Shown one piece after another: positions 10,087 to 32,611 of a DNA stretch of 64,000 nucleotides. Within the stretch, counting starts at the first letter, position 1. Every line of letters begins with the position of its first letter. The notes under the pieces are model-generated. The model was not told the DNA's origin, ran no database searches, and was given only the letters and a program-made list of their open reading frames with translations. The translations under genes and the position numbers were made by a program. Origin of the DNA: a virus; IMG/VR virus record IMGVR_UViG_3300025929_000013, positions 44,848 through 108,847 of that record; one strand, written 5' to 3'.

Positions 10087-10472
10087 CGCGCCACCGCCTC
10101 GGGTGCGTCGGCCGCGGTCAGGTGCACCGGGCGCAGGCCGTCGGGGTGGTCGGTCAGGGTGTCGCGTGCGATGCGCAGCCCGTCCTGGTAGGCGCTCCAG
10201 CGCTGTCCCAGGCCCGGATCGGCGCGCTCCATCTCGGCGTAGCGCCCGGCGGCCTCGTACTCCCGGCACAGCGCGGTGACCGCGCCGTGGTAGCGCGAGC
10301 GCAGCGCCTGGAGCTCGTCGACCAGATAGCCGATCTCGTCGTTGTCGTGGCTCCAGCCGCGTTCGGCGTCCAGCAGCGCGGTGACGACCTCGGCCAGCGA
10401 CGGGTACGCGGGCGAATCCGGGGAGGTGTTGCGCAGGCGGTAGGTCAGGCGGCGCAGGTCGTTCAGGCTCAT
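10083..10472 (-). CDS. hypothetical protein
   Basis: ATG 10472 overlaps the upstream stop. Confidence 0.7.
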   Translation of the reverse strand: MSLNDLRRLTYRLRNTSPDSPAYPSLAEVVTALLDAERGWSHDNDEIGYLVDELQALRSRYHGAVTALCREYEAAGRYAEMERADPGLGQRWSAYQDGLRIARDTLTDHPDGLRPVHLTAADAPEAVAR

Positions 10473-10759
10473 CGCGCGCCCCCCGTGCAGCGCGGGTCGT
10501 TCGCGACCACCGCGATGCCGCCGTAGGGGCTGTCGTTGTGGTAAATGGTGTACACCATGTCGGGGCCGTCGCATTTGCGCGACCAGTTGCTAAAGCCGTC
10601 GGGCATGTTGCCGACGGTCGCCGGGCTGTCGTTCTGCACGCGGGTGCGCTGGGCGTCGTTGTACGGCTGCTGTGCCTTGTTCGAGCAGGCGACCGCGGTC
10701 GACAGGACGGTGCACACGACGCCGATCGCGCCGACAATGAGCGTGGTCTTGGGGATCAT
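10469..10759 (-). CDS. putative lipoprotein
   Basis: Hydrophobic signal ending in lipobox-like AVAC, followed by a polar domain. Confidence 0.7.
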   Translation of the reverse strand: MIPKTTLIVGAIGVVCTVLSTAVACSNKAQQPYNDAQRTRVQNDSPATVGNMPDGFSNWSRKCDGPDMVYTIYHNDSPYGGIAVVANDPRCTGGAR

Positions 10760-11799
10760 CGGGTTCCCTCCGGGAAGGCGCGGGTCAGGATCTGCTTGCG
10801 CAGCTGCTCCTGGGCGGTCAGGTCGCCGCGCAGCAGGTCGACGAGCGCGTCCTTGCCCTTCACCCGTACACCGGTGACCGTGTAGTAGGCCCCGGACCGC
10901 TCGATCGCCTCGTAGAGCACGCCCATGGTCACCAGCTCCTTGACCTCGTCGTACTCGCCCTGGCGAAAGCCCAGCAGCGGGGCGTCATCGAAATAAAAAT
11001 CGATGGTTGCGATGCGGTGCGGCGCCGCGCTCTTGTTCTTGATCGTCCTGGCTTTGATCGTCTGGCCGACACGGGCGGCGCCCTTGCCGGGGCGCGTCTC
11101 GTCGATGTACTCCGCCCGCGCCACCTCGACCCGCGCGTAATACGCGTAGTTCTTTGCGTTTCCGCCCGGTGATGTACGGGGGGTGCCCTGGGGGGAGTAG
11201 CCGCCGATCTTGTCGCGCCACTGGTTGATGATCAGCCCGAGCAGCGGGCGCTCCGTGCCGGTCATGGCCCTGGCCGTGGATGTTCCGGCCTTGCGAAAGA
11301 ATTTCCCGGTCAGGCGCGCGCCGAGGGCCACCTGGAGCTCGTCGATGCCCTTCTCCTCCTCCTGGTCGGGGATCAGGGCGGGGTAGGAGTCCAGGACGAT
11401 GGTGTCCACGGCGCGGGAGGCGGCGGCCTCCAGCATCGCCGAGTAGGCCTCTTCCATCGAGTTGGTGGGGTGCAGCAGGACCCTGTGGTTGTCCACGCCG
11501 AGAGCGGCGGCCCAGGCCTCGTCGTATCCCTCGGCGGCGACCCACCAGCAGGTGAATGCGGGGTCGACGCGCTGGTTCTCGGCGATGGTCTTGAGGACGA
11601 CGGCGGTCTTGCCGGAGCTTTCCTGGCCGATGACCTCGGTCCACTGGTTGCCCGGCCAGCCGCCGCCCAGGGCGATGTCCAGGGACAGGGAGCCGCTGGG
11701 GAAGCGGGGGGCCGCGGGGACGTCGGCGGCCAGGACGAGGGTGTTCTCGCCGTACTTCTTGTTGATCTTCGCGATCAGAGCGGTGACGACCGGGTCCAT
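10756..11799 (-). CDS. recA: RecA/UvsX-like recombinase
   Basis: SGSLSLDIALGGG, GQESSGKT, IVLDS, IINQWRDKIG, PGGNA and KNK motifs. Confidence 0.93.
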   Translation of the reverse strand: MDPVVTALIAKINKKYGENTLVLAADVPAAPRFPSGSLSLDIALGGGWPGNQWTEVIGQESSGKTAVVLKTIAENQRVDPAFTCWWVAAEGYDEAWAAALGVDNHRVLLHPTNSMEEAYSAMLEAAASRAVDTIVLDSYPALIPDQEEEKGIDELQVALGARLTGKFFRKAGTSTARAMTGTERPLLGLIINQWRDKIGGYSPQGTPRTSPGGNAKNYAYYARVEVARAEYIDETRPGKGAARVGQTIKARTIKNKSAAPHRIATIDFYFDDAPLLGFRQGEYDEVKELVTMGVLYEAIERSGAYYTVTGVRVKGKDALVDLLRGDLTAQEQLRKQILTRAFPEGTR

Positions 11800-13283: not shown

Positions 13284-15218
13284 TTATTTCGCTTCGGCCC
13301 AGCTGTCGCAGACGACGAGGTCGCTGGTCAGGGGCAAGTTGATCAGTTTCTGGATGTCGGGGCCGAGCATCGCCTCGCGCACGATCGCGGCGCATTCCTC
13401 GGCCAGCGGGGCGGGGGTCTCGGTGACCAGCTCGTCGTGCACGGTCAGCACCAGGCGCATCCCGGAGTGCAGCTGCCGGTGCAGGCGCACCATGGCGAGC
13501 TTGATCAGGTCCCCAGCGGAGCCCTGGATCAGGGAGTTGACGGCCTGGCGTTCGGCCAGGGCGCGCAGCTCGCTGTTGCGATAGCGGATCTCCGGCAGGC
13601 GCCGGTGGCGCCCGAGCAGGGTCACGATGTGCGGGTCCGGACGCGAGCGGCAGGTGCGGATCACGCTCTCGCGGAACCTGTAGATCTCCGGGAACTGGCG
13701 GCGGTGCACTTCGAGCACGCGCTTGGCCTCGGCGAGGGGGATCTTCGCCATCGCGGCCACGCGCGCGGGTCCGGCGCCGAACACGATCGCGAAGGCGATG
13801 GCCTTGGCGACCTGGCGCATGTCCTTGGTGACCTGCTCGGCGGTGACGCCGAACACCTGCATCGCGGTCGCCGTGTGCGCGTCGATGCCCGCCCAGAAAC
13901 CCTCGTACAGGGCCCCCATCCCGAGGTAGTGAGCGAGGATGCGCAGCTCGATCTGGCCGTAGTCGGCAACCACCAGGCGGTAGCCCTCGGTCGCGGTGAA
14001 CAGGGAGCGCACCTGTCTGGCCAGCTTCTCCCCGGGACGCGGCACGTTCTGGAGGTTCGGGTCGCGCGAGGAGAATCTGCCGGTGCGCGTCCCATACTGC
14101 ACGAAATCGGTGTGGATACGGTCATTGATGAGGACCCCGGGCTTGTCGTCGGTGCCGAGGTAGGAGCGCACGTAGGTGGTGTCGATCCGCTCCAGCTCCT
14201 GGTACGCCTCCAGGGCCTGCACGACCGGCTGGTCCGCGTAGGGCTCCAGGGCCTCGGAGCTGGTGGAGTAGTCGCTGATGGTCAGCTTCGCGCCGAGTTT
14301 CGCCTTGGCCTCGCCGCCCTTGGTGGGCAGCAGGGGTTTAAGGCCCAGGCCTCCTTCGGCGGGCTTGGCGTAGAGCAGCTGCTGTTTCTGCGGCACGCTG
14401 TTCAGGTTGAAGATTCTTCCGGCGGCGGCGTAGAGGTTCTCGCGGGCGTTGTCCAGTACCGGGGTGATCTCGTCGGCCAGTCTCTGAAGGGCCGCGGTGT
14501 CCACATGGGCGCCGTCGCGGCGCATGTGCGCGACGACTTCAAGGACCTGCATCTCCAGGTCCATCAGCTCGTCGAACCCCTGCGCGCTCAGTGCCTTGGC
14601 GACGCGGCGATAGAGCAGCCAGTCGTAGCGGGCGTCGAAGAACCCGTAGCGTCCGACGGCGGAGATGGAGTGGCGCTCGACCGCCTTGCCGGTCTCCTCG
14701 CGGTCGTAGGTCACCCCGTACGTATTGGTGATCAGGTCCTTGAGTCTCTTGGAGCGCAGGTTCTCGTCCAGGATCCAGACGCCCACGATGGTGTCGTGGT
14801 AGGGGGGCGCGGGGATCGCCGGGAGGTGCTTGGCGACGGAGACCAGGTCGATCGTGGCGTTGTGCGCGATCTTCGTGCGGCCGGACGCCATCAGGGGGGC
14901 CAGGGCCTCGAACACGCGCTCGCGTTCCAGCTGTTTGGGCGGGGCGTCCCAGAGCGGGGGGTGGGTGACGAATTTCCCGGTGGCGCGGTCCTTGCGGCGC
15001 ACCGCGGGGGCCAGCAGGGTGTCGCCGTTGGGGTGGCCGAACGGGATCGAGCAGGCGAACCCGTAGGTGGCCAGGGAGATCCAGGTGACCTCGTTGTAGA
15101 CCGGGTGCCCGCGCCTGGGGCCGGTGGACTCGATGTCGAACGCGAACGCGTCGGCGGCCTCAAGGCGCGCCACGGTGTCACGCAGTTGTTCTTCGGTGAG
15201 CACGAGCGCGGGGAACAC
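13284..15218 (-). CDS. polA: family A DNA polymerase (3'-5' exonuclease plus polymerase)
   Basis: FDIES exo I, TRTGRFSSRDPNLQN, DYGQIELRILAH (motif A), RQVAKAIAF (motif B), VHDEL (motif C). Confidence 0.95.
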   Translation of the reverse strand: MFPALVLTEEQLRDTVARLEAADAFAFDIESTGPRRGHPVYNEVTWISLATYGFACSIPFGHPNGDTLLAPAVRRKDRATGKFVTHPPLWDAPPKQLERERVFEALAPLMASGRTKIAHNATIDLVSVAKHLPAIPAPPYHDTIVGVWILDENLRSKRLKDLITNTYGVTYDREETGKAVERHSISAVGRYGFFDARYDWLLYRRVAKALSAQGFDELMDLEMQVLEVVAHMRRDGAHVDTAALQRLADEITPVLDNARENLYAAAGRIFNLNSVPQKQQLLYAKPAEGGLGLKPLLPTKGGEAKAKLGAKLTISDYSTSSEALEPYADQPVVQALEAYQELERIDTTYVRSYLGTDDKPGVLINDRIHTDFVQYGTRTGRFSSRDPNLQNVPRPGEKLARQVRSLFTATEGYRLVVADYGQIELRILAHYLGMGALYEGFWAGIDAHTATAMQVFGVTAEQVTKDMRQVAKAIAFAIVFGAGPARVAAMAKIPLAEAKRVLEVHRRQFPEIYRFRESVIRTCRSRPDPHIVTLLGRHRRLPEIRYRNSELRALAERQAVNSLIQGSAGDLIKLAMVRLHRQLHSGMRLVLTVHDELVTETPAPLAEECAAIVREAMLGPDIQKLINLPLTSDLVVCDSWAEAK

Positions 15219-15987: not shown

Positions 15988-16222
15988 GTGATCTCCTGCT
16001 CAGCGCGGGATGGGCGTGAAGCACCGAGTTGTCCTCGGTGGTAAGGCCCTGATAGCGCTCGCGTTCCGGCCGAAGCAGGCGATCGATGGCGTTGCGGAAG
16101 TACTCGACGGGGTCCACGTCCCCGTCTTCGAAGTCAGCTGTCACCGTGGCCGAATATTCGGCCCATTCATAGGAGCCCAGGTTCACGTGCTCGGTGACCG
16201 TGCGCGTGATCTGGATCTTCAC
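15950..16222 (-). CDS. hypothetical protein
   Basis: VNLGSYEW motif; packed. Confidence 0.7.
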   Translation of the reverse strand: MKIQITRTVTEHVNLGSYEWAEYSATVTADFEDGDVDPVEYFRNAIDRLLRPERERYQGLTTEDNSVLHAHPALSRRSHGNQAPPRTARG

Positions 16223-16704
16223 TGGTCCGCCTTGGCGGCCTGGGCCTCGGCGTTGGCGGTGCGCACGAACAGCTCGTAGATGCGCGCGCGGAAGTTGGTC
16301 TTGTGGATGTTGCGGCCGTGGGGGCTCAGGACCCCCTCCTCCCGCGCTATCTCGATCATCGCCTCGATCAGCGCGCGGGAATAAAGGCGCTGCCTTCCGC
16401 GCACGTCGGTGGACGGCGAGCGCCAGAAGGTGACCGGCAGGATGCCGTCCTGCTCCCAGCGCCGCACGGTGGTGACCTTGCGGTTAAGGGCCTTGGCCAA
16501 GGCGCCGATCGGAAAGAACTCGACCGTCTTGCCGCGCACCATGTACTTGCGCGGGTAGGAGTCCCAGCGCTCGCGGGAGGCGACGGGGGCGGCCAGCTCG
16601 GTCGGGCGCGAGGCCACGATCTGGCGGTTGGTGCCGGGGTACAGCCCGGTTTCCGGGTCGGGCGTGCGGATGAACGGGCCACCGGCGCAAGAGCTCTTGG
16701 TCAC
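16219..16704 (-). CDS. MerR-like HTH DNA-binding protein
   Basis: IGALAKALNRKVTTVRRWEQDGILP...RLYS; GTG 16704. Confidence 0.8.
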   Translation of the reverse strand: MTKSSCAGGPFIRTPDPETGLYPGTNRQIVASRPTELAAPVASRERWDSYPRKYMVRGKTVEFFPIGALAKALNRKVTTVRRWEQDGILPVTFWRSPSTDVRGRQRLYSRALIEAMIEIAREEGVLSPHGRNIHKTNFRARIYELFVRTANAEAQAAKADQ

Positions 16705-17165
16705 AGCGCCTCCGCCTCCGGCTTGAACGCCCAGCTGACCCGGGTGTCGAACAGGTCGTCGATCTCGCGCTCGGTCAGCAGGCCCTGCTGGTAGAGGACG
16801 TAGAGCTCGTCCTGATCGAAGGTGGGCCTCGCCGGGAACAGCCGACCGACCACGCCCTTGGCCATGGCCAGGGCCTCGGCGCGCTCCTCGTTGACCAGGC
16901 GTGAGACGCGCCGCTCGCGCTTGATGCCCTCGTAGCGGCGCCCGGCGTACTCGAAGGGGCGCCCGATCGCCAGGCGCAGGTGCCCGGACTCGTCGCTCTC
17001 GCCGTAGCGCTCGACGTCCGCGCTGATGTCGTCTCGCAATTGGTTGAGCTGGCTCGTGAGGCGGTCGACCTGGGCCTTGAGATAGACCCACATTTTCAGC
17101 TTCTCGGTAAGCTCCTTACCCGGCACCGTGCCGGGGTCGTCACACTGCATCACAGATGTCTCCAC
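16701..17165 (-). CDS. hypothetical protein (coiled-coil N-terminus)
   Basis: Protein-like ORF with high GC3. Confidence 0.75.
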   Translation of the reverse strand: METSVMQCDDPGTVPGKELTEKLKMWVYLKAQVDRLTSQLNQLRDDISADVERYGESDESGHLRLAIGRPFEYAGRRYEGIKRERRVSRLVNEERAEALAMAKGVVGRLFPARPTFDQDELYVLYQQGLLTEREIDDLFDTRVSWAFKPEAEAL

Positions 17166-17348
17166 GGTTGTATCCGCGCAGCCTGATAGAAGCGGTCTGA
17201 GAAGACCGTGCTGCTATCGGGGGAACTGCTAGCGACCGTAGGTCCACCCGGCCAAGAAGCCAAGGGTTGGCGCACTGCAAGTGACTATGGATTTGATGTG
17301 GTCAACTAATCGACCAATTGTTGGGGGGACGCACCCTCATCTGGACGT

Positions 17349-17969
17349 TTAAGCGGTGGCCTGGCGGTAAATGTTGCGCAGGCTTCCCTCGGAGCGCTCC
17401 AGGCCGCGCTCGGTGAGCCAGGGGGCGGCGATCTGGCGCGCGAAGGCGACGCCGGTTGCGTTCGGGTTGGCCGCGTACGCGACGGCGAGCTTCTCCAGCT
17501 CCTGGCGCACGGCGCTGCGCGGCTTCGTGGCACCCTTGGCGCGGGCGGGCTTGGTCTTCGTCGCGGGCTTCACCTCGGGCTCCTCGCGGTGCGCCGAGAA
17601 GTGCGACAGCAGGGTGTTGACGACGAAGGCGGCGCTGGGCAGCACGGCGACGAAGTATCCGACCAGGTCGTGCACGGGTGCGTCGAACAGGTTCGCCGCG
17701 AGGGAGATGCCGCAGAAGAGGGCGAACACGAACCACGCGAGCATGCGCACGCCGCCGGACAGGGTGCGGTCCAGGACCTTGCGCAGGGCGTACACGGTGA
17801 CCGCGTCGACCGCGACGGGGTAGAGGTCGGCCTGCCACTGGCCCTGTCCGGCGCGCAGGGCCAGGTCCCTGATGTGGCTGAAGCTCAGGGCGCCGGTCAC
17901 GACGGCCAGGAACACGGTCGCGCCGTGCTCGGCGATTTTCTGCGTGATCTCGCTCAGCCAGCGCATCAT
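17349..17969 (-). CDS. DUF2637-type membrane protein with C-terminal HTH-like segment
   Basis: About 4 TM segments; LSFSHIRDLALRAG...LYPVAVD...SLAAN motif; basic linker and helical C-terminus. Confidence 0.75.
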   Translation of the reverse strand: MMRWLSEITQKIAEHGATVFLAVVTGALSFSHIRDLALRAGQGQWQADLYPVAVDAVTVYALRKVLDRTLSGGVRMLAWFVFALFCGISLAANLFDAPVHDLVGYFVAVLPSAAFVVNTLLSHFSAHREEPEVKPATKTKPARAKGATKPRSAVRQELEKLAVAYAANPNATGVAFARQIAAPWLTERGLERSEGSLRNIYRQATA

Positions 17970-17993
17970 TTCCCCACCCGATTCCCTGAATCA

Positions 17994-19039
17994 GTGCACC
18001 GTATTTCGACAGGGTAGGAGAGTGCTGCGCATTGTGCAAACTATTCTACCGCTTGTGAACTTGTGCACCCTGTGTGGGATCGTGGTGTGTGCACATCTGG
18101 GCGGTTCGTGCACGCACGTCATTCACCCGTTCGGCCCCACGCCGGTGTGCGTGATGCGTGCAGGTGTGCGGTGAGTGATCCGCGTTTGTGCGTGCGCTTG
18201 TGTGCACGGTCGTCGACCGAGGCGAGCATGACCTGTTGTGCACCGAGCATCCGTGCATGCACGTGCTCCTCGATGCTGTGCACGGTGACCATGTCGTCCA
18301 CGTGCACGGTGCGGTGCACCGAGGATGCACGGGTGTGCCGGGTGCAGCGCTGCATCCATGCACCCACCCCGCCGGGCGCGTCGTAGTTGATCACGTGGGA
18401 GGCGACGGGCAGGTCGACGCCGCTGCCCCCGGCGTCCGTGCTCAGGAACACCCGGCACGTGAAGCTGGTGCAGAAGCGGGCCACGGCCGCGGCGCGGGCC
18501 GCCGCGTCAAGCTCTCCGTGGTACAGGACGCTCTGATAGGCCCCCAGGGCTTCTTGCAGCAGCGGGAGCATCTCACGGAACGCGGTGAACACCACGACCT
18601 TGTGGGAGGGCTCGACGAGGGCTGCGTCGACCAGCTGGAGCAGGACGTCGAGCTTCTCCCCGCCCGCCTGCTCGGGAATCGCGCCCGCGTCGACCAGCTT
18701 GCGGGCGTAGGCGCTGCCGATGCCCTTGCCCTTGCCCTTGCCCGCGCTGCGGTGTTTGGCCGCGGAGACGTGCAGCAACCGCGGGTCGCACAGCAGCAGC
18801 CGCGCGGCGAGCATGCACGCGCTGACCCGGCCGAGCGCCGCGCTGCCGTGCTGTGCACCGCCCGCGTACAGTGCGGCGACGTCCACGTGCGCACGACCCT
18901 CGTCGCGGGCACGCTCCAGTGCATGCTCCAGGTCGCGTTCGATACGTGCATACACCGCGCGGGTGTGCACACCCAGATGCACCGGGACCGTACGGTGCAC
19001 GACGGCGGGCATGCACGCGGCCACGTCCGGATCGTGCAC
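17994..19039. repeat. cluster of GTGCAC palindromes and TGCA-core variants
   Basis: GTGCAC at 17994, 18063, 18089, 18108, 18202, 18238, 18278, 18302, 18314, 18853, 18965, 18995 and 19034, plus many ATGCAC/GTGCAT/GTGCAG. Confidence 0.9.
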
Positions 19040-19753
19040 GGTGCGCCGGTGCATCGCCGGGGCGAGCGTGTCGTGCATGACGTCGAGGTTCCGGTAGGCC
19101 ACGGGGCGCCCGTACTCGTTGCGCACGACGTAGGCGCGGTCGTATAGGTCCCACCGGCCGAACACGGACGGGTCGACCCACTGCATGACGCTGTAGATCT
19201 CCTCGGGCCTGCCGTTGTCCATGGGCGTACCGGTCAGGGCGTACCGGTACGGAGCTGTCAAATCCTTGATCTTCTTGGTGCGCTGCGCCCCGGCGTTCTT
19301 GATCGCCTGCGCCTCGTCCAGGACGATCCCCTCGAAAGCCAGGCGTCGCAGGGCCCCCGCGTCGGCGCACGCGGTCTCGTAGGAGACGATCACGTAGTCC
19401 GGGCGCCCGTCGCGCTGCATCGCGGCGTATAGCTCGGCACGCTTGGCCGGGGCGGCGTCGATCACCGCGCAGTGTTCCGCGGCCGGGACGCGCAGCGTCA
19501 CATTCTTGAGCCGGATCCCGCGCGTGCGAACGTCGGCGAAGGCCGCGATCTTCTCGGCCCACTGCCAGCGCAGCGCCGCCGGGACGATGATCAGGGCGCT
19601 GTCGACCTCGCCGCGCATGAAGAGTTCTTCGATCACGGCGAGGGCGACCAGGGTCTTGCCGGTGCCCATCCCGTGCGCGATCAGCATGCTGCGGCGCTCG
19701 ACGGCGGCGCTCACGGCCTGTTCCTGGTAGCCGTGCAGATTTCCGCAGAACAT
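18119..19753 (-). CDS. SNF2-family (SF2) helicase
   Basis: GMGTGKT, IIVPA, LDEAQ, LTGTP, KVVVF and STDAGGSGVDL...INYD...QR motifs. Confidence 0.9.
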   Translation of the reverse strand: MFCGNLHGYQEQAVSAAVERRSMLIAHGMGTGKTLVALAVIEELFMRGEVDSALIIVPAALRWQWAEKIAAFADVRTRGIRLKNVTLRVPAAEHCAVIDAAPAKRAELYAAMQRDGRPDYVIVSYETACADAGALRRLAFEGIVLDEAQAIKNAGAQRTKKIKDLTAPYRYALTGTPMDNGRPEEIYSVMQWVDPSVFGRWDLYDRAYVVRNEYGRPVAYRNLDVMHDTLAPAMHRRTVHDPDVAACMPAVVHRTVPVHLGVHTRAVYARIERDLEHALERARDEGRAHVDVAALYAGGAQHGSAALGRVSACMLAARLLLCDPRLLHVSAAKHRSAGKGKGKGIGSAYARKLVDAGAIPEQAGGEKLDVLLQLVDAALVEPSHKVVVFTAFREMLPLLQEALGAYQSVLYHGELDAAARAAAVARFCTSFTCRVFLSTDAGGSGVDLPVASHVINYDAPGGVGAWMQRCTRHTRASSVHRTVHVDDMVTVHSIEEHVHARMLGAQQVMLASVDDRAHKRTHKRGSLTAHLHASRTPAWGRTGE

Positions 19754-20683
19754 TTACAGACGCTCCAAATACCGCGCGAGGCGCGAGTAGGCGCCGTCGT
19801 AGGCGTCGGCGATCTCTTTGTCGCTCATCTCGCCGGGGTCTTTGACGGTGCGCCGCGGGTAGCGGAAAAAAGTGACGCGGGTGCGGCGGCGCAGCCGGGC
19901 CTCGACCAGGTCCGCGTTCGAGATCCCCGGCTCGTCGTTGTCCAGGGCGATCACGACCCGGTCGGCCAGGCGCACCAGCAGGTCGATCTGGGCGTCCGAG
20001 ACAACCGCGCCGAAGGAGGCGAGCGCGCCGGGGATTCCGGCGGCCCACAGCCGGGCGCAGTCCAGGGGGGACTCGACCAGGACCGCGGTGTCGCCGTCGA
20101 AGGCGTGCGCCCCGAACAGGGTGGAGGCCTTGGCGATGCCGCGGGGGCGGTTGCGCACGAACTTGCCGCGCTTGTACTGGTAGCCGAGCAGCGCGCCGCG
20201 CGGGTCGCGGATCGGCAGGACGAAGCCGCCGGACTCCTCGTCCCACAGCAGGCCGTAGCGGGCGGCGCCCTCGTCGTCGATGCCGCGTTTGGCAAGCGCC
20301 TCGGCCGGGGGGAAGGCGTAGCCTGCCAGGCTCGGCTCCGGCGGGGGCGCCGATGGTACGCAGGGTCCGCGCAGGATCCGTGCGGCGCGCTCCAACGACC
20401 CGTAGCGCGCGGTCCAGGTGTGCGCGGCGACCGGGTCCAGGCCCAGGCGGTCCATGACCAGGGTGGGAAACGAACCCTGATAGCCGCAGCTGAAGCAGAG
20501 GAACAGACCGCGCTCCTCGTTGACACTGAACGAAGGGTGCCGGTCCTCTTTCCCGGTGCGCGCGAGATGGGCGGGGCAGTGCGCCCACACCTCCCCGCCC
20601 TCGACGCGCACGATCTCGATCCCCAGCTCCCGCAGCGCGCCCTGTACGTCGCCGGGCACCGGCGGGGCGGTCAGATCCCACAT
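19754..20683 (-). CDS. DNA primase (CHC2 zinc finger plus TOPRIM)
   Basis: CPAH...PSFSVN...CFSCG, LVESPLDC, LDNDEPG. Confidence 0.9.
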   Translation of the reverse strand: MWDLTAPPVPGDVQGALRELGIEIVRVEGGEVWAHCPAHLARTGKEDRHPSFSVNEERGLFLCFSCGYQGSFPTLVMDRLGLDPVAAHTWTARYGSLERAARILRGPCVPSAPPPEPSLAGYAFPPAEALAKRGIDDEGAARYGLLWDEESGGFVLPIRDPRGALLGYQYKRGKFVRNRPRGIAKASTLFGAHAFDGDTAVLVESPLDCARLWAAGIPGALASFGAVVSDAQIDLLVRLADRVVIALDNDEPGISNADLVEARLRRRTRVTFFRYPRRTVKDPGEMSDKEIADAYDGAYSRLARYLERL

Positions 20684-20692
20684 ACCGGCGCC

Positions 20693-21970
20693 CTACCAGC
20701 GTGAGGTCGCGCTCGTGCCGCCGGTGGTGGCCTCGAATGGGCTCTGCGCCAGCTCCTCGCACGCCCCGCGACTCCAGTCGATGCGGATGTGGCTCTGCAC
20801 GTTGGGGCAGTTGCGCGAGGCGACGATCTTGAGCAGCTTGACCGCGTCGTCGTCGGTGGGATCGAGCGCCATGGCGATGTCGGCGTCCATTTCGAAGCTC
20901 GACGCCCAACCGAACGAGCCGCCGTCGGCGCCCTTCTTGCGGTCGACCTTGGAGCGCAGCAGCTGGCTGGTGATGATCACCGGGATCGCCCAGGTGTCGG
21001 CGAGACGCTTGAAGGACTGCGTGAGAGAGGTGATGGCCTGGGGTGTGCCCACGTCCCCGGTCAACTCGTCGCGCATCAGGTAGATGCCATCGACCGCGAG
21101 CAAATCGGGGCGGTTGCGCTCGATCGACGCGGCGATCTGTGTAATCGTGGCCTGATGTGCGATCCCCTTGTGGATGTGGAAGGACGCCATGCCTCCCACG
21201 CGGGCGATCGCGCGTTCCAAGCGAATCCATTCGGCCTGGTTAAGCGTGCCGCTGCGCAGCTTCTGGACGTCGATCCCGGCGAACGAGGCGTCGAGGCGCT
21301 CGGCGATCTCCATGACGCCCATCTCGATCGTGTAGAGCAGCGGAACCAGCTCGCTGCCGTTGGCGTAGGCGTCCTCGTAGGCGTAGCGGGTGATGGCGCT
21401 CAGGACAGTGGTCTTGCCCCCCTTGGGCAGGCCGCCGAGCACGACGAGCTGTCCCGGTTGCAGGCCTTGGGTGGCTCGGTCGACGGTGGGGAACCCGGTG
21501 GGGATCCCGCGCAGGCCCTCGATGCTCTCGCGGTAGGCGCGATACTGCCCCAGGCGCTCGTCGCCGCTCTTGAGCAGTTCCAGCATCGCCGCGCGACGGC
21601 TCGGGCGCATCAAGGAGCGCAGGGTGGTGGCGAGTACGCCCTCGCTGGCGTCCAGGTCCCCGGCCTCCAGCGCCTCGACCGCGCGCACCACGCCCACAGC
21701 GAGCACCTCGCGGTTGCGCTGCTCGACCAGGCGGTCGAGGTAGACGGCGATCGGCTCGGGCGGGGTGTCGAAGGTGTAGCCGGGGAACTGGGCCGCGAGG
21801 GTCTCGGCGCTCGGGACGCGGCCGTAGCGCGTCTGGTGGCCGAGGATCGCCTTGTACACCTTGGCGTGCACGGGGGTGGGGAAGTATTCGGCGGTGATCT
21901 GGGCGTCGGTCAGGGCGTGGGTCGAGCCCTCGGCCACGACCGCGCACAGGACCCTGTGTTCGATGTCCAT
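20693..21970 (-). CDS. dnaB: DnaB-like replicative helicase
   Basis: GIPTGFPTVD, GLPKGGKT, IEM, VDGIYLM, TSQ and MDAD motifs. Confidence 0.92.
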   Translation of the reverse strand: MDIEHRVLCAVVAEGSTHALTDAQITAEYFPTPVHAKVYKAILGHQTRYGRVPSAETLAAQFPGYTFDTPPEPIAVYLDRLVEQRNREVLAVGVVRAVEALEAGDLDASEGVLATTLRSLMRPSRRAAMLELLKSGDERLGQYRAYRESIEGLRGIPTGFPTVDRATQGLQPGQLVVLGGLPKGGKTTVLSAITRYAYEDAYANGSELVPLLYTIEMGVMEIAERLDASFAGIDVQKLRSGTLNQAEWIRLERAIARVGGMASFHIHKGIAHQATITQIAASIERNRPDLLAVDGIYLMRDELTGDVGTPQAITSLTQSFKRLADTWAIPVIITSQLLRSKVDRKKGADGGSFGWASSFEMDADIAMALDPTDDDAVKLLKIVASRNCPNVQSHIRIDWSRGACEELAQSPFEATTGGTSATSRW

Positions 21971-22426
21971 CTAGAGCCGTCCGATCTGGTCCGCGCGGTC
22001 GGGGGGAAGATGCTGGCCGCGCTGCCCGAATGTCAATAGGTTGGCCCGGTCGGGGAAGTAGACCCGCTGCACGTCCGGGCGCCGCGCCAGCTCGCGGGCG
22101 ACACCGGCGGGGGTGCGGCTCAGGACCGGGGCGTAGATGTTCTGCTCGTAGCCGAGCGTCTCGGCCAGCTCCAGGGCGAAGCCGTCCCCGAGGAAGGTGA
22201 GCACTTCCAGGTGCCAGTGGTCGCGCACCATCGTGCGGTAGATCGCGGCGGCGGCCAGCTCGTTGACCGAGAAGTCCGCGGGGGACAGCGCCCTGGGGGG
22301 CGTACGGCGGCGCCAGGGGCCCTTGCGCGGTGCGCTTGGGGTCTCGGGCCGCCGCAGCCCCACCAGGCCCTCGTAGACCACCCAGAGCCGCTGCGGGGGG
22401 TCGTCTGAGATGTCGCCGTGCTGCAT
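21971..22426 (-). CDS. hypothetical protein, degenerate HAD-like
   Basis: LWVVYEGLVG; coupled to dnaB. Confidence 0.65.
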   Translation of the reverse strand: MQHGDISDDPPQRLWVVYEGLVGLRRPETPSAPRKGPWRRRTPPRALSPADFSVNELAAAAIYRTMVRDHWHLEVLTFLGDGFALELAETLGYEQNIYAPVLSRTPAGVARELARRPDVQRVYFPDRANLLTFGQRGQHLPPDRADQIGRL

Positions 22427-23115
22427 CAGGACCGGTGCCGCGGGATGGTGACCGGCAGCTGTGTGAAGCCGCGCAGGAACTCGACCAGGTGCTCGGGGTA
22501 GGCAGCGATCATCTGGGGCAGCCCCACGCCGGTGACGGCGATGGTGACCAGGCCGCGGCGGCGGCGGGAGGCAAGGACGCGGTACAGCTCGTCGTAGGAC
22601 GCACCGGAGGCGGTGATGCGCTCGCGCCCGATGTCGTCGATCACGATCAGCGAGTCGTGCATGACGCGATCCATGGAGGCGTCCAGGCTCTCCAGGTCGT
22701 CCTCGTGCTCGATGCCCCGGCCCTCGCGCCAGGCGTGACGCTCGTTGAAGAAATGGATGTAGTCCGGCCAGGGCACGTAGAGCACGGTGATCCCGTCGTA
22801 CCGGCGCCCCAGCACGATCTCGGTCAGCACCGTGCAGGCGATCTCAGTCTTGCCGATCTTCGGAGGCCCGCTCACGAACAGGCCGACCCCGATCAGGCTG
22901 CGATCGTCGGGGAACTCGGATAGGGGCGTGCGCTCGGGCACGTAGCGCACTGCGAACGTCTCGATGAAGTCCCGGGCGATCTGGAGCGTGGCCTCAGGAT
23001 GGGCGAGGTCCTCCAGGACGCGGCCCCAGGTGCCCACGGGGAATCGGGCGGCGTTCCACACGGAGGCGGGCGGCATTGTCTCGGTCACGGGGTTCCAATC
23101 AGGATACGAATTCAT
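22426..23115 (-). CDS. DnaC/IstB-like AAA+ helicase loader
   Basis: GLFVSGPPKIGKT Walker A, IVIDDIGRE Walker B. Confidence 0.85.
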   Translation of the reverse strand: MNSYPDWNPVTETMPPASVWNAARFPVGTWGRVLEDLAHPEATLQIARDFIETFAVRYVPERTPLSEFPDDRSLIGVGLFVSGPPKIGKTEIACTVLTEIVLGRRYDGITVLYVPWPDYIHFFNERHAWREGRGIEHEDDLESLDASMDRVMHDSLIVIDDIGRERITASGASYDELYRVLASRRRRGLVTIAVTGVGLPQMIAAYPEHLVEFLRGFTQLPVTIPRHRS

Positions 23116-24037
23116 AGGTGGTCGGGGTCGAGGTCCGCTCCGGCCAGCGCACGTAGGCGTCGGGGTCGTCGCGGTACAGGGCGCGCTGCTCGGCCTCGCG
23201 GATCTTGGACAGCAGCAGGTGGCGCTGGAAGAGGAAGTGCCTCCAGGGGGCCACGCTCGGATTGCGCAGGCCTCCGGCCTCGGCGTACAGGTTCGTCATC
23301 GCGCGGATCTGCGCGGGGGTGACGCCCTCGTCGAGCAGCACCCGGAACAAGCGTGCCAATGCCTTGACATTGGTGTCGAGGGCTCCGGCGATCCGGGCCT
23401 CCTGCATCCGCGCGCGCCACGCCAGGGCCAGGCCCATCGGGCTGTCGGCCGAGGGCGAGCGCCGCGGGCCGTGGGAGCCCCAGCTCTCCCGCGAGGCCCC
23501 GGCGCTCGCGCTCGCCGGGTGCGTCTGCCACAGATCCAGAGCCTTCGCCGGATCCAGGGCGTCCTCCCGGTCCCTGGCCGCCTTCGCCTCCCGGCGTACC
23601 GCCGCGCGCCGCGGCGGTGAAGGAAGACACGAAGTGTCTTTCTTCTCTGGCTCTGGTTCTATTGGCTCTCGTTCATTGAGGGCCCCCATCCGTGATGGGT
23701 CGGTGTCCCGCACCGGTGATGGGTCGCTTGCAGGGTTCTGCGATGGTGCGGGCTTCCCGATGCCGAGGAGATATTCGACGCCGTGGATGACGCCGCGGCG
23801 CTTGACGGTGATCCACCCGGTCTCGCGAAGCTCGCGCACCGCCCGCTCGATCGTGGGTACCGAGCACTTGAGATCGGCGGCGAGCGTGGCCTGGCGCGGC
23901 CAGCACCGCCGCGCGTCGCCCGCGTAGCGCAGCAGCATCCCGTAGACCGTGATCGCCCGCGGAGACAGACCGCTTCGCAGCAGCTCTTCGGGCAACGGTG
24001 CCCAGTACCCCTCGTTCATCAGTACCCCGTCATCCAT
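23099..24037 (-). CDS. HTH-domain replication initiator-like protein
   Basis: LSPRAITVYGML...CWPRQATLAADLKCSVPTIERAVRELRETGWI; upstream of DnaC/DnaB. Confidence 0.75.
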   Translation of the reverse strand: MDDGVLMNEGYWAPLPEELLRSGLSPRAITVYGMLLRYAGDARRCWPRQATLAADLKCSVPTIERAVRELRETGWITVKRRGVIHGVEYLLGIGKPAPSQNPASDPSPVRDTDPSRMGALNEREPIEPEPEKKDTSCLPSPPRRAAVRREAKAARDREDALDPAKALDLWQTHPASASAGASRESWGSHGPRRSPSADSPMGLALAWRARMQEARIAGALDTNVKALARLFRVLLDEGVTPAQIRAMTNLYAEAGGLRNPSVAPWRHFLFQRHLLLSKIREAEQRALYRDDPDAYVRWPERTSTPTTYEFVS

Positions 24038-28702: not shown

Positions 28703-30343
28703 TCAGGCCCCCAGGTATCCGGTGGCCAGGGTGGTGCTGACGCCGACCGCGCTCCAGGTGCCCATGCCGCCGGTGACCGGGTTGAGGTAGGTGACCGAGT
28801 CGGTGTACGCCTGGGAGGAGGACCACTGCGCCGCGGACGTGCTCGCGCCGGTGGGCGGGTTGCCGGGCGCGTAGATCAAGGGGTTCTCGTTGAAGGTGAT
28901 GGTGGAGAACAGCAGGTCGTACGCGGAGGCGGAGGCGTTCTTGGAGGCGACGCTCAGGGTCAGGGTGTGCGCGCCCGCGATCAGCGCCACCGGCGTGGTG
29001 CCCAGGGTGACCGAGCCGTTGGACGCCTTGTACAGGTCGTAGGACGCCTGGTAGGTGGTGGGCTGGGTCTGTCCGCGCAGCAGGTTGAGCTTGCCCACCT
29101 GCACCGCGGCGCCGTCGATCGCGGCGGTCAAGATGCCGCTGTCCGCGCCGGTGCCCAGCACCAGGACCGCGGTGACCGAGCCGTTGCCCAGGACCGTGAA
29201 CGGGACGCTGACCACGGTGGTGGGCCCCGCGGCGTTGGTCTCCTTCACATACGAGACGCTGGACACCGTCACCACGCTCAGGGCGTTGGGTGCGCCGGTC
29301 ACCGCGTCGGCGACGTAGTTGCCGGTGTTGACGGTGCTCACGGAGGACACGCAGGTGTAGCGCACGCCCAGGTAGATCACTTCGTCGCCGGGTTTGTACG
29401 CCCCGGCGGGGTTCCACGGTGTGGGCGGCGGGGAGTAGAACGCGGACTGGTCCTGGGTGAGCACCTCGTTCACCCCGGTCGCCACCGTGGCCTTGAGGCC
29501 CGTGGCGGCGTGCACGCTGTCGGCCAGGCCCGCGGCGGTGCCCTTCTCCTGGTTCAGGCGGGCGGCGCGCTGGGTGCGCAGGCGCTGGTAGCGCGCGGAG
29601 GACGCGAGCTCGGGGTTGATGCCCAGGCCCTGGCCCAGCTCGTAGAGCCGGTCCTGGCGGGTGGTGAGGATCGCGTCGACTTCGAGCAGGTCGTCGAGCT
29701 CGGTGTGCATCTGCGCGAAACCGAATCCGAGGATGGACAGAAAAGCGGTCAGATCCGCGTTGGGGTCGGAGACGTCGGTGCTGGTGCCCGGCAGAGCCTT
29801 GTAGGGCGCGGGCACCAGGGATTCGAGCAGCGCGGTGTAGCCGTAGTCGCGCACACTGAGGCACGCGACGGATCCGGCGGCGCGGTAGAGGGTGGTCTCG
29901 AAGCTGACGGACCACACGGTGGAATCCGTGCCGGGGGTCACGTTCAGGGTGTAGGGCACCAGGCAGGACCACACCGATCCGCCGTGCGCGACCCGGTCCC
30001 CGGTGCCGTAGGTCAGCGCCGCCGACCACGCCGGGAAGGGTGTGGCGAGGAAGAACGTGTAGTACCAGTAGCCGGGCGGCAAGTCGGTGTCGGCGTAGTC
30101 GCTGCGCAGCGTGCTGACGGGGAAGCTGGCCAGCTGTACGCCGTCGGTGATCGCGACGGGGTAGCCGTAGCCGGAGCGCACGAGGGTGAGCTGTGTCCAG
30201 TCGGCCAGGGGCGGGGTGTCCCAGGACAGGGTGATGCGCCCGTAGTCGCTCTGGACGGCGGTCAGGTTGGTGACGTGGTAGTCCAGGTCCTGGGGCGCGC
30301 CGTAGAGGGTCTTGCCGTAGACGTCGATGCCGTAGGTGGCCAC
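28703..30343 (-). CDS. baseplate/tail protein (P2 gpI-like) with CBM5/12-like repeats
   Basis: DLTAFLSILG...LYELGQGLG...EKGT; WSAALTYGTGDRV and WNPAGAYKPGDEV. Confidence 0.75.
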   Translation of the reverse strand: MATYGIDVYGKTLYGAPQDLDYHVTNLTAVQSDYGRITLSWDTPPLADWTQLTLVRSGYGYPVAITDGVQLASFPVSTLRSDYADTDLPPGYWYYTFFLATPFPAWSAALTYGTGDRVAHGGSVWSCLVPYTLNVTPGTDSTVWSVSFETTLYRAAGSVACLSVRDYGYTALLESLVPAPYKALPGTSTDVSDPNADLTAFLSILGFGFAQMHTELDDLLEVDAILTTRQDRLYELGQGLGINPELASSARYQRLRTQRAARLNQEKGTAAGLADSVHAATGLKATVATGVNEVLTQDQSAFYSPPPTPWNPAGAYKPGDEVIYLGVRYTCVSSVSTVNTGNYVADAVTGAPNALSVVTVSSVSYVKETNAAGPTTVVSVPFTVLGNGSVTAVLVLGTGADSGILTAAIDGAAVQVGKLNLLRGQTQPTTYQASYDLYKASNGSVTLGTTPVALIAGAHTLTLSVASKNASASAYDLLFSTITFNENPLIYAPGNPPTGASTSAAQWSSSQAYTDSVTYLNPVTGGMGTWSAVGVSTTLATGYLGA

Positions 30344-30344
30344 G

Positions 30345-31109
30345 TCAGATCCCCGGCACCGGGCGCACGTAGGTGGCCGTGAGCGTCGCGACGCCGCTGC
30401 ACGTGCCGTTGTACTGCCCGATCTGCACCGTGAGGACGTCGCCCTGGTGCAGCGGCCCGTCGTAGGACACGGTGGGCAGGTGGGTGGCCAGGTACACCGG
30501 CTGATACGGGATGTGCGAGGCGTGCTGCTTGACCAGGGAGCCGTTGACGTGGAAGCGCACGATGACGTCCTGGAACGCGATCGGCACCGGCAGCAGCGCG
30601 GAGGCGTTCAGGACGTTCTGCGCGGAGGACAGGGCGACCTCGTCGACCGCCGCGGAGAAGCCGACGTCGATGTGGTACCAGCCGCCGAGCACGCTGGTGA
30701 TGTGCGAGCCGCCGGACCACATCCGGAACGGGTCCTGCACCGGGACGCTGGTCCAGTTGATCAGCCCGAAGTTCGCCGGGCCGGGCAGCGTGAGCCGGTT
30801 GGGGGTCACCCCGCCCTGGCTCAGGCTCAAGACCGGGGTGTTCCAGCCGTTCGCGGACGCGGTGACCAGGTTGCTGATCTGGGTCTGAAGGCTGAGCAGG
30901 GTGGTGTCGTGGTGGTCCAGGCGCGCGCCGACGTTGGCGTAGACCACCGCGGAGGAGCCGACGGGGGCGTAGATGTGGGGGTTGACGCCCAGGGTCTGCT
31001 GGGTGGCGCCCAGCTCGTCCTGGAGGGCGTTGACGTCGTTGGCGTCGACCGTGGTGATCTGGTCGCGTTTGGTGGAGTAGGTGCGCACCGCGCCCGGGTA
31101 GACCGCCAT
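30345..31109 (-). CDS. tail/baseplate-associated structural protein
   Basis: ATG 31109; DANDVNALQDEL..Q.TLG; beta-rich C-terminus. Confidence 0.7.
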   Translation of the reverse strand: MAVYPGAVRTYSTKRDQITTVDANDVNALQDELGATQQTLGVNPHIYAPVGSSAVVYANVGARLDHHDTTLLSLQTQISNLVTASANGWNTPVLSLSQGGVTPNRLTLPGPANFGLINWTSVPVQDPFRMWSGGSHITSVLGGWYHIDVGFSAAVDEVALSSAQNVLNASALLPVPIAFQDVIVRFHVNGSLVKQHASHIPYQPVYLATHLPTVSYDGPLHQGDVLTVQIGQYNGTCSGVATLTATYVRPVPGI

Positions 31110-32611
31110 TACACGCCTCCCGTGGCGTTGATCGTGAAGGTTCCGGCGGCCGGGCACTCCCAGGCGCGGAAGAACGCGTCGAAGGTCCCGGTCTGGGGCA
31201 GGTCGCTGCGCGCGAACACGGGGATGTTGACCAGCGACACCCCGGGTACGGCGTCGACCGCGGCGTAGATCGCGGACAGCGGCACCAGCTCGCCGAAGTC
31301 GACCGCGTCCGGCGCGAACACCGCCTGGAGCGCGGCCGTCACCGCGCCGAGGGTGGCGGCGCGGTTGTAGGAGGGCTGCACGTAGAGCTGCACCGGGGAC
31401 GCCGAGGTGCCGATGTTGACGCTCACCACCGTGCCCGCCTGCACGCTCACGCTCATCCCGGCCACCACCAGGGGCGCGAGGGTGTTCTGGACCTGGGTGA
31501 TCAGGGCGGTGGTGGGGGCCGAGCGCTGGGCGGCCAGGATGTACACGGTCACCGCGCCGGTGCCGGAGCTGATCGCGGAGGCCTTGGACACGGCGGACAG
31601 CGAGAGTGCGGCGTCGGCGTAGTCGGCGAGGGTGACGCAGCGTTTCTGGGTGCGCCACGCGCGCGGGGCGTTGATGCGGATCGAGTCAAGGGACTCGGCG
31701 TCGGCGCCGCCGAGGGTCTGGCTGGAGGACTGCACGGTGACCCCGGTGACCGCGTGCGCCAGGTCGGTGATGGAGCCCGCGGCCAGGTTGCCGTAGGCGC
31801 CGCCGCCGACGCGGTAGGACGCGGAGATAACGACCCCGCTCGGCGGGACCATCCCGTTGACGCCGTCGCCGAAGACGATGGTGGACGCGCCGGTGGCGTC
31901 GGTGGCCACGCTGTAGACGGTGTCGGTGGGGCCCGCGTCCAGCAGGCTGTCGGTCGCGCTCCACACCGCGGGGCCGCCGGGCAGCTGCACGATCACGACC
32001 AGGGTCGGGGGCAATAGCGGCGCGGTCGGCAGCGCGAAGGACTGCCCGGCCACCCCCGTGCTGGTGCCCAGGTCCAGCACCTGGTAGGTGGTCGCGGACG
32101 CGACGCCGATCGAGACGGTCAGGGCGTAGTGGCCCTGGTCCTTGCCCTGGGTGACGTTCGCGGTGACGCTGCCCCCGGCGGCCGGGACGGTGGTGTCGGC
32201 GTCCAGCTCGAAGGTGATGTTCCCGTCCACGCTGGCCTGGTAGCCGGTGATCAGCTGGGTGGCGGCGGGCAGCAGGATGGAGCCGGTCGTGCCGGGGTCC
32301 GAGACCAGGGTGACCGTGCCCGTCGCGGGCAGGGCTGGCGAGGGGGTGTATCCGATCAGGGCGGCCAAGTTCAGCACGCTGGCGCGCTGGGTGGCGGTAG
32401 CCAGGAAGGCCTCGTTGGCGATGCGGTCCTGGTAGTAGGACAGGATGTCGCCCACGTAGCTGATCATGTCCGTGAACAGGACGCCGAAGTCCCCGGTGTC
32501 CCGCGACGTCCACTGGGGCATCGCAAGGTCCGCATACGCGAAGAGCGACTGCTGGAACCCGGTGAAGTCCTTGCTGATGTAGTCGACGACGTTCGGCAGC
32601 GGCGTGCCCAC
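31109..32611 (-). CDS. baseplate J/gp47-like wedge protein
   Basis: DYISKDF, DILSYYQDRIANEAFLATA, FGDGVNG, GGADAES...RCVTLADY. Confidence 0.92.
   Translation of the reverse strand: MGTPLPNVVDYISKDFTGFQQSLFAYADLAMPQWTSRDTGDFGVLFTDMISYVGDILSYYQDRIANEAFLATATQRASVLNLAALIGYTPSPALPATGTVTLVSDPGTTGSILLPAATQLITGYQASVDGNITFELDADTTVPAAGGSVTANVTQGKDQGHYALTVSIGVASATTYQVLDLGTSTGVAGQSFALPTAPLLPPTLVVIVQLPGGPAVWSATDSLLDAGPTDTVYSVATDATGASTIVFGDGVNGMVPPSGVVISASYRVGGGAYGNLAAGSITDLAHAVTGVTVQSSSQTLGGADAESLDSIRINAPRAWRTQKRCVTLADYADAALSLSAVSKASAISSGTGAVTVYILAAQRSAPTTALITQVQNTLAPLVVAGMSVSVQAGTVVSVNIGTSASPVQLYVQPSYNRAATLGAVTAALQAVFAPDAVDFGELVPLSAIYAAVDAVPGVSLVNIPVFARSDLPQTGTFDAFFRAWECPAAGTFTINATGGV

Follow-up and report, generated by a model that had tools for sequence, protein, structure and literature searches.

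Introduction

SpdA2 of the plasmid pIJ101, a protein of 117-163 amino acids, has an N-terminal zinc-finger-like DNA-binding region and binds two to three copies of a 12-bp palindrome in its own gene (Thoma et al. 2014, PMC4170104), and the SpdA2/sps pair affects plasmid stability (PMC4170104). Here we describe a locus of comparable kind in a phage: an array of short palindromes with the word RTGCAY (R, purine; Y, pyrimidine), located in an SNF2-family helicase gene and in the non-coding gap next to it, beside a gene for a membrane protein of the DUF2637 family. The locus was analyzed in a window of 64,000 nucleotides, bases 44848-108847 of the single-contig virus record IMGVR_UViG_3300025929_000013 (108,847 bases; 67% guanine plus cytosine (GC)). 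The likeness to SpdA2/sps is that the palindromes, carried by a mobile element of actinomycetes, overlap coding sequence and impose residues there (SRDD/E in the case of SpdA2; PMC4170104). SpdA2 has no membrane domain, whereas the 24 sites described here, 6-8 bp each, occupy the adjacent helicase gene together with the gap, and a DUF2637 membrane protein is the candidate for reading them. By family description, this protein also departs from SpdA in size and in the place of its DNA-binding region: it has 206 amino acids, with the DUF2637 part at its N-terminus and the DNA-binding-like domain at the opposite end. A 12-bp palindrome in one to three copies within or just upstream of the reader gene, as known for SpdA, was not found at this locus; the DUF2637 gene holds only one GTGCAC.

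A second counterpart is SpdB2 of the plasmid pSVH1, a four-helix integral membrane protein with non-specific binding of double-stranded DNA, oligomeric pore formation and a role in intramycelial spread (PMC4447253). Putative SpdB2 homologs occur on actinophages and were proposed to help spread phage DNA (PMC4447253). DUF2637 proteins are widespread among phages, plasmids and integrating conjugative elements of actinomycetes, and the literature searched mentions them in passing only. They resemble SpdB2 in that a DUF2637 gene sits in the spd cluster of a pSAM2-like element, directly after the FtsK-like transfer gene, and in that gp25 of phage phiC31 matches the DUF2637 profile. SpdB2 differs in its non-specific binding and in having no site array (PMC4447253). 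The comparison with named SpdB proteins covered that of pIJ101, whose alignment with the DUF2637 profile gave an hhalign probability of 0.3%. From the gene context, a link of DUF2637 to spread functions is plausible, which does not imply membership in the SpdB2 family.

An earlier note on this DNA, made from the letters alone, had proposed a module of cis-acting sites and a membrane tether and had named as precedent SpdA-type proteins that are membrane-associated and bind palindromes near their own gene. This precedent is misattributed, as it merges two proteins, one of which, SpdA2, binds the palindrome, while the other, SpdB2, is the four-helix membrane protein (PMC4170104, PMC4447253). The array selected at the DNA level, the reshaped helicase and the DUF2637 neighbor were all recovered in the present analysis.

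Two phage systems bring DNA to the membrane. AlpA of prophage CGP3 in Corynebacterium glutamicum binds 24 alpS repeats; DNA in the bound state is carried to the membrane, and without the system phage replication drops to half (PMC4446434). The likeness is that of an actinobacterial phage with ~24 short repeats at the promoter of the reader's own operon (PMC4446434). AlpA, however, is soluble and works via an actin-like AlpC filament, and alpS lies in upstream non-coding DNA rather than in a helicase gene. The protein p16.7 of the lytic phage phi29, an integral membrane protein, binds DNA and thereby organizes replication of the viral DNA at the membrane (PMC4974454 and references therein). It differs in having one membrane helix, in binding single-stranded DNA and the terminal protein, in lacking a site array and in having no sequence relation to DUF2637. 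Against this background, the array is a new variation on binding sites embedded in coding sequence and not a new category.

A dense array of one palindromic word

Of the 36 copies of GTGCAC in the window, 13 fall within 17994-19039. A recount agreed with the earlier note in placing nine of them in 17994-18319 and four in 18853-19039; the DUF2637 gene itself has one more, at 17670. Elsewhere the window carries 0.37 copies per kb, about one per 2.7 kb, close to the one per 3 kb that had been expected. With the rest of the window as the Poisson background, the segment 17970-19100 contains 13 copies of GTGCAC against 0.42 expected (p = 1.5e-15), 42 of GTGCA/TGCAC against 2.5 (p = 2e-36) and 31 of TGCA against 3.2 (p = 3e-20). 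This enrichment is 10- to 30-fold and unique within the genome: counted in 1-kb bins over all 108,847 bp, TGCA reaches 26 in the array bin and at most 7 in every other bin.

The one-off variants that had been noticed are present and nearly all read GTGCAT or ATGCAC, and we therefore define the word as RTGCAY. There are 24 copies in two clusters, called A and B (Table 1), 13 of them GTGCAC, with the flanks adding a weak YRTGCAYR preference. Cluster A reaches the motif VI surroundings and the C-terminal tail of the SNF2 helicase, and cluster B is placed in a variable stretch between the two helicase lobes. Within the array, no repeat unit longer than the hexamer core and no helical phasing or periodicity were detected, the spacing being irregular. 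A blastn search of the array region against the phage collection gave zero matches, and nothing relevant emerged when the literature on phages and Streptomyces was searched for descriptions of GTGCAC as a binding site.

GTGCAC is a type II restriction site, and both E. coli oriC and the P1 pac site are marked by clusters of short palindromes that serve as methylation targets. We regard it as improbable, however, that the array is a methylation or restriction cluster of this type (ApaLI/SnoI, with a role in timing or as a decoy) or an RNA or single-stranded DNA structure made of self-complementary hexamers. Folding of the cluster A mRNA exceeds that of shuffled sequences (z = -3.0), whereas cluster B shows no excess of RNA structure (z = -0.5). 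The phage genome contains no match to the C5 or N4/N6 methyltransferase families PF00145 and PF01555, with other methyltransferase families and host enzymes outside this search. The outer positions of the word vary (R...Y), unlike those of a restriction target, and outside the array GTGCAC is neither depleted nor enriched in the remaining genome.

A word-enrichment scan of the kind suggested earlier ranked the array as the strongest cluster of the genome apart from one other locus. This locus, which alone among the local word clusters exceeds the GTGCAC/TGCA array, resembles a CRISPR array; it lies upstream of the window at genome positions 28900-31300. In a short-word blastn comparison of the CRISPR array with the rest of the genome, matches did not exceed 18 bases, and the GTGCAC region was free of them. 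Self-targeting of the array region by the phage's own CRISPR was rejected, as zero spacers match it.

Selection on the DNA word and a reshaped helicase

The SNF2 gene contains 20 RTGCAY sites, including nine GTGCAC, which are spread over reading frames 0, 1 and 2. We resampled the gene synonymously, with the helicase protein fixed and the codons redrawn from the phage's own usage in 5000 draws. RTGCAY was then expected 6.8±1.65 times (maximum 12), compared with the 20 observed, and GTGCAC 3.35 times, compared with nine (p = 2e-4). Of the 86 Ala codons in this gene, 12 are the rare GCA, which accounts for ~4% in other genes, and rare GCA and CAT codons occur inside array sites. Because sites are present in the non-coding gap, all three frames are used and the resampling reveals an excess, selection acts on the DNA word, beyond the protein alone.

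The resampled expectation is itself several-fold above the background density, and the amino-acid sequence of the helicase is therefore biased towards the word as well. The open reading frame (ORF) contains VHRTVHVDD, TVHS, HVHAR and QRCTRHTR, consistent with the bias, including the motif VI region, that the earlier note had read from the letters. Val-His pairs are confined to residues 226-262, the inter-lobe stretch, and 479-521, the motif VI surroundings and C-terminal tail, with some turnover of positions among relatives. The change of Asn to Cys in QRNTRH, which gives QRCTRH, is unique to the window phage in the alignment. The enzyme nevertheless matches PF00176 (SNF2-rel_dom; E = 2.6e-30) and PF00271 (Helicase_C; E = 2.1e-18), and motifs I, II, III, V and VI are intact (GTGKT, DEAQ, TGTP, DAGG and Q468/R469/R472/R475, invariant in the alignment). 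Since these motifs are preserved, the gene is, by this measure, dual-coded rather than decaying. The inter-lobe linker of the helicase also contains a GKGKGKG stretch, encoded by three consecutive copies of CCCTTGCCC at 18723-18735, whose length varies among close relatives.

These amino-acid preferences might suggest that the DNA word has no function and arose because the helicase was selected, as a protein, for a surface rich in His and Val. In favor of this view, six of the nine in-gene GTGCAC are Val-His codon pairs, and some of the His residues (H480, H497) are conserved family-wide. All eight Val-His pairs in 16 other window genes are also written GTGCAC, for which reason we dropped the codon choice of these pairs as a test of selection on the DNA. 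The four perfect sites in non-coding DNA, the use of frames 1 and 2, the synonymous resampling (p < 2e-4) and the rare GCA and CAT codons inside sites all speak against it, and this explanation is strongly disfavored, the least probable of those considered here.

To follow the array in the clade of close relatives, we used proteins, with the Val-His count as a proxy for the DNA array. Helicase homologs form a graded series from 80% down to <40% identity. Next to the window helicase (P0001) stand its six closest relatives with 63-80% identity (P0002-P0007), and 26 further relatives follow (P0008-P0033); the IMG/VR helicase relatives all have ≤45% identity. The numbers of Val-His pairs in P0001-P0007 are 8, 8, 6, 6, 3, 7 and 7, versus 0-2 in each of P0008-P0033. 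The six clade members could still encode 17, 16, 10, 11, 14 and 8 of the window's 20 in-gene sites, the outgroups 0-2. Judged from these proteins, the array is probably old and conserved across the phage clade, at a cost to the helicase. The resampling excess and the clade-wide Val-His signature together bear out the earlier suggestion that selection was strong enough to reshape a neighboring enzyme. The locus also calls for caution in reading protein conservation as purely protein-level selection.

The DUF2637 protein beside the array

The 206-amino-acid product of the gene next to the array matches DUF2637 (PF10935) with an E-value of 3.2e-14 and 53.6 bits, compared with a gathering cut-off of 22.8, over residues 18-129, and the family profile is matched by 35 of 35 aligned relatives. 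An AlphaFold2 model calculated with this 35-sequence alignment (mean predicted local distance difference test (pLDDT) score 88.9) has helices at residues 2-39, 44-66, 72-95 and 102-126, and four membrane-type helices (residues 2-126) are the predicted architecture of this part. A Lys/Arg/Pro-rich linker (residues 127-150) connects them to the C-terminal three-helix domain, whose helices occupy residues 151-205 in the full-length model. From the four helices and the basic linker, the positive-inside rule predicts that the tail should face the cytoplasm. Its putative recognition helix is RSEGSLRNIYRQ. Many members of the family end in a canonical helix-turn-helix (HTH), such as GVSERTVQRHL, and RSEGSLRNIY of the window protein aligns with that recognition helix; among the 35 members, weak Pfam hits were obtained for HTH_23 in three, HTH_11 in two and HTH_24 in two. 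Profile match, model (four plus three helices) and family alignment thus agree with the initial description of a DUF2637 protein with about four transmembrane segments and an HTH-like tail.

The putative promoter region and a proposed function

The gap between the SNF2 and DUF2637 genes contains four GTGCAC and one GTGCAA around promoter-like hexamers on the minus strand, so the sites span the intergenic space as the earlier note had stated. By arithmetic from the background density, the chance of four perfect sites and one variant in this gap is ~4e-7. The hexamers are TTCACA (18059-18054) and, after a 17-nt spacer, CACAAT (18036-18031); TAGAAT at 18048-18043 is an alternative -10 element. 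One array site falls into the 5' leader of the DUF2637 gene (17999-17994).

The array is most likely a field of docking sites for a sequence-specific DNA-binding protein. As its reader, the adjacent membrane-anchored, HTH-like DUF2637 protein is the leading candidate, with a probability of about 0.4 for its reading a cis-acting field of ~24 RTGCAY sites. In this model, ~24 short palindromes (RTGCAY, weakly YRTGCAYR) would form a cis-acting docking field, which selection on the DNA would keep in one clade of large Streptomyces-type phages, dictating which codons, and in places which residues, a functional SNF2 helicase uses. The reader would be the product of the next gene downstream, with its DUF2637 four-helix anchor, basic linker and cytoplasmic HTH-like tail. 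The DUF2637 promoter region is situated inside the site field; the protein may regulate its own promoter, and it may keep this portion of the replication module attached to the cytoplasmic membrane. Somewhat less probable is the full version of this model, in which array and DUF2637 protein make up a self-contained membrane DNA-docking device: the HTH tail would read the ~24 RTGCAY sites and pin the replication module for the organization of replication or for hyphal DNA passage, with the sites overwriting essential-looking helicase residues across the clade.

Whichever protein reads it, the array locus provides a concrete candidate DNA target beside a DUF2637 gene. Should the full version of the model hold, a function and a DNA target would be assigned for the first time to the DUF2637 family, whose members are found on phages, plasmids and integrating elements of actinomycetes. 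Binding of the sites by the tail would mean that a single protein localizes phage DNA at the membrane, joining phi29 p16.7 and CGP3 AlpA/AlpC as evidence for the spatial organization of phage replication.

Next in order after the DUF2637 protein comes an unrelated regulator, followed by a function in replication. The array could be the operator field of another phage or host regulator. Covering the gap and the helicase gene's 3' half, such a regulator would either control the DUF2637 promoter or stop transcription of the replication operon from reading through. The sites flank the -35 and overlap the -10 element of the sole promoter-like match in 16900-19900, DUF2637 is a separate inserted unit with gaps on either side, and other small DNA-binding proteins are encoded nearby, for example one with a weak MerR/HTH_17 match (Table 1). 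For an operator, however, the 19 further sites over 1 kb of upstream coding sequence would be superfluous, the MerR-like protein is conserved in array-free relatives, and the genome has no other promoter-associated cluster of the word. An operator field is less probable than the DUF2637 reading. A partition protein of the ParB type finds no candidate in this phage, as ParB_N had no match in the whole genome, a search that did not extend to ParA, ribbon-helix-helix or actin-like families.

Association of array and DUF2637 gene in relatives

In the relatives whose SNF2 locus could be read, four BRock-like phages and six IMG/VR contigs (42-45% identity), the SNF2 gene is followed directly by the conserved p154 gene, and neither a DUF2637 gene nor an RTGCAY cluster was found at this position in any of the ten. 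Since these relatives run straight from SNF2 to p154, the DUF2637 gene with both of its flanking gaps is, by this comparison, a separate insertion. The earlier note had proposed to test whether helicases without a DUF2637 neighbor also lack the array, and in these more distant relatives they do.

Helicases and DUF2637 proteins of further relatives were taken as encoded on the same contig where contig sizes and sources agreed. A Val-His signature is present in the pairs P0002/P0122, P0004/P0124, P0005/P0126, P0006/P0125 and P0007/P0127. Sorted by the tail helix of the DUF2637 protein, the counts of Val-His/Met-His are 10 for SEGSLRN, 9 for SEGTLRN, 6 for SPGTLRN, 7 for SPGGLRN, 7 for SIGTCRN, 3 for SPRTYSN, 2 for SKGRVRS and 1 for a different tail. 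The sister pair P0006/P0005 has seven versus three Val-His pairs, with the tails SPGGLRN versus SPRTYSN. Where the matched helicase (P0008, P0017) is without the signature, the DUF2637 tail differs as well, being SKGRVRS in P0130 and unrelated in P0135. Such co-variation of tail and signature is the pattern expected of a reader and its sites, and it comprises few independent contrasts.

Several observations weigh against the DUF2637 protein as reader. By the same contig matching, a DUF2637 gene is present in P0008/P0130 and P0017/P0135, and the helicase there is without the Val-His signature. Co-occurrence of the array and the DUF2637 gene reflects essentially one evolutionary gain, relatedness confounds the way in which the tail helix varies with the signature, and the Val-His count is a proxy for the DNA array. 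A fold search with the tail alone returned Z-scores of 4.3-5.9, with HTH domains mixed with unrelated matches, and generic helical bundles dominated the search with the full model. A palindrome of 6-8 bp is also short for a classical HTH dimer.

The same holds for the comparison with other DUF2637 genes. No comparable array was found at those of phage Samy, phiC31 (gp25) and the pSAM2-like element, where standout words come only from the Pro/Glu-rich linker. Of 26 IMG/VR loci with another DUF2637 subfamily, the gene window ranked first in four, with p-values from 1e-3 to 1e-8, no better than control windows, versus 1e-36 here. A word array as a general companion of DUF2637 genes was thus not reproduced in these 29 other loci.

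The comparison loci yielded some observations of their own. The phiC31 gene gp25 (36291-37007 of its record) has no Pfam DUF2637 hit; its match to the DUF2637 profile was obtained by hhalign (92.5%, E = 5e-7, 94 columns), and its product ends in the HTH-like sequence HPATVRKKF. The pSAM2-like element was found in NZ_CP071873.1, a 27.8-kb 'plasmid' of Streptomyces formicae consisting of ~2.7 head-to-tail copies of one 10.38-kb integrating element with the gene content int, xis, rep, NUDIX, FtsK-like tra, DUF2637 and SpdD-like. This record is probably an assembly concatemer.

Genome setting and the possibility of a replication origin

The virus record is rated 100% complete by CheckV, and from its sequence the virus is a large Streptomyces-type phage of ~109 kb. 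The closest named phages are the Streptomyces phages BRock, GiJojo, LuckySocke and pSt2308 with genomes of 112-115 kb, ~39% helicase identity to the window phage and an identical gene order. Nearly all window genes are carried on the minus strand. The features of the region are listed in Table 1.

Table 1 Features of the RTGCAY array and its surroundings, in window coordinates.
Feature	Position	Strand	Remarks
Site cluster A	17994-18363	.	13 RTGCAY, 9 GTGCAC; covers the 149-bp gap and the last ~82 SNF2 codons
Site cluster B	18813-19078	.	11 RTGCAY, 4 GTGCAC; SNF2 codons ~226-313
SNF2-family helicase gene, 544 amino acids	18119-19753	-	Pfam SNF2-rel_dom and Helicase_C
Non-coding gap between SNF2 and DUF2637 genes, 149 bp	17970-18118	-	GC 48-58%
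DUF2637 gene, 206 amino acids	17349-17969	-	Pfam PF10935
Predicted C-terminal three-helix domain of the DUF2637 protein (residues 145-206)	17352-17537	-	pLDDT 94-97
Second gap, from DUF2637 gene to conserved p154 gene, 183 bp	17166-17348	-	ORF map and synteny
Small conserved genes after the second gap, including a weak MerR/HTH_17 match	16219-16674 (MerR/HTH_17)	-	
HTH_36 replication initiator gene	23099-24037	-	
DnaC-like loader gene	22426-23115	-	
DnaB gene	20693-21970	-	
Primase gene	19754-20683	-	
DNA polymerase I gene	13284-15218	-	
RecA gene	10756-11799	-	

This setting suggests a further explanation, namely that replication starts at the array or is assisted by it as an accessory site, with the phage initiator, or a recruited or titrated host factor such as DnaA, as the reader. 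Lambda O is an example of an origin inside a replication gene. The lambda origin in gene O and the iteron origin of the relative L114 share with the array that cis-acting sites of the replication module can lie within a replication gene. The array is flanked by the DnaB, primase and SNF2 genes on one side and by the DNA polymerase gene on the other, and it adjoins the lowest-GC stretch of the region. No classical iteron array occurs elsewhere in the genome. About half of the sites read TGTGCAC, one base off the core of the Streptomyces DnaA box, whose consensus is TTGTCCACA; the count of TGTGCAC is seven array sites (nine matches with both strands counted).

Other features fit an origin less well. 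Iterons are regular, few and 17-23 bp long (four of 23 bp in L114), whereas the array comprises 24 irregularly spaced palindromes of 6-8 bp without helical phasing. It thus lacks the features of an iteron-type origin, with no unit beyond the hexamer core, no periodicity and a gap whose GC content drops only to 48-58%. In L114 the origin-like array is located near the loader genes and not at SNF2. DnaA boxes are scarce in the window, with TTGTCCACA found 0 times and TGTCCACA once, neither of them in the array. The recognition helix of the initiator (PTIERAVRELRE.GWI) is almost identical in clade members and on outgroup contigs with helicases that lack the Val-His signature. By these comparisons, both the phage initiator and DnaA are unlikely readers, and an origin is a doubtful explanation, which we rank behind the operator. 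Should the array be read after all by the replication machinery or by a host factor, it would mark an unusual origin or titration site in the poorly studied large Streptomyces phages.

In L114, whose helicase is 44% identical to that of the window, the repeats are located at L114:4229-4370 and consist of four tandem 23-bp units, each with an inverted repeat GGGTCAGTGAGTGACCC, followed by an AT-rich stretch. They lie just upstream of a 248-amino-acid ORF with a faint DnaI_N match, and the arrangement resembles a textbook iteron origin. The window phage has two 20-nt direct repeats (CCCCCATCCGTGATGGGTCG-like), 24 bp apart, inside the initiator gene (23683-23726), and two 22-nt repeats at the junction of the initiator and loader genes (23034-23077). 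Both sets of repeats are weak candidates for the phage's real origin.

The replication module appears as a mosaic among close relatives: the contig of P0002 has a helicase 80% identical to that of the window phage and an initiator 57% identical, whereas the corresponding values for the contig of P0006 are 67% and 72%. A minor word cluster, which is not a tandem repeat, was seen in ORFs just downstream of recA, where 6 of the 56 genome copies of AACGAC/GTCGTT fall within 320 bp (10338-10655).

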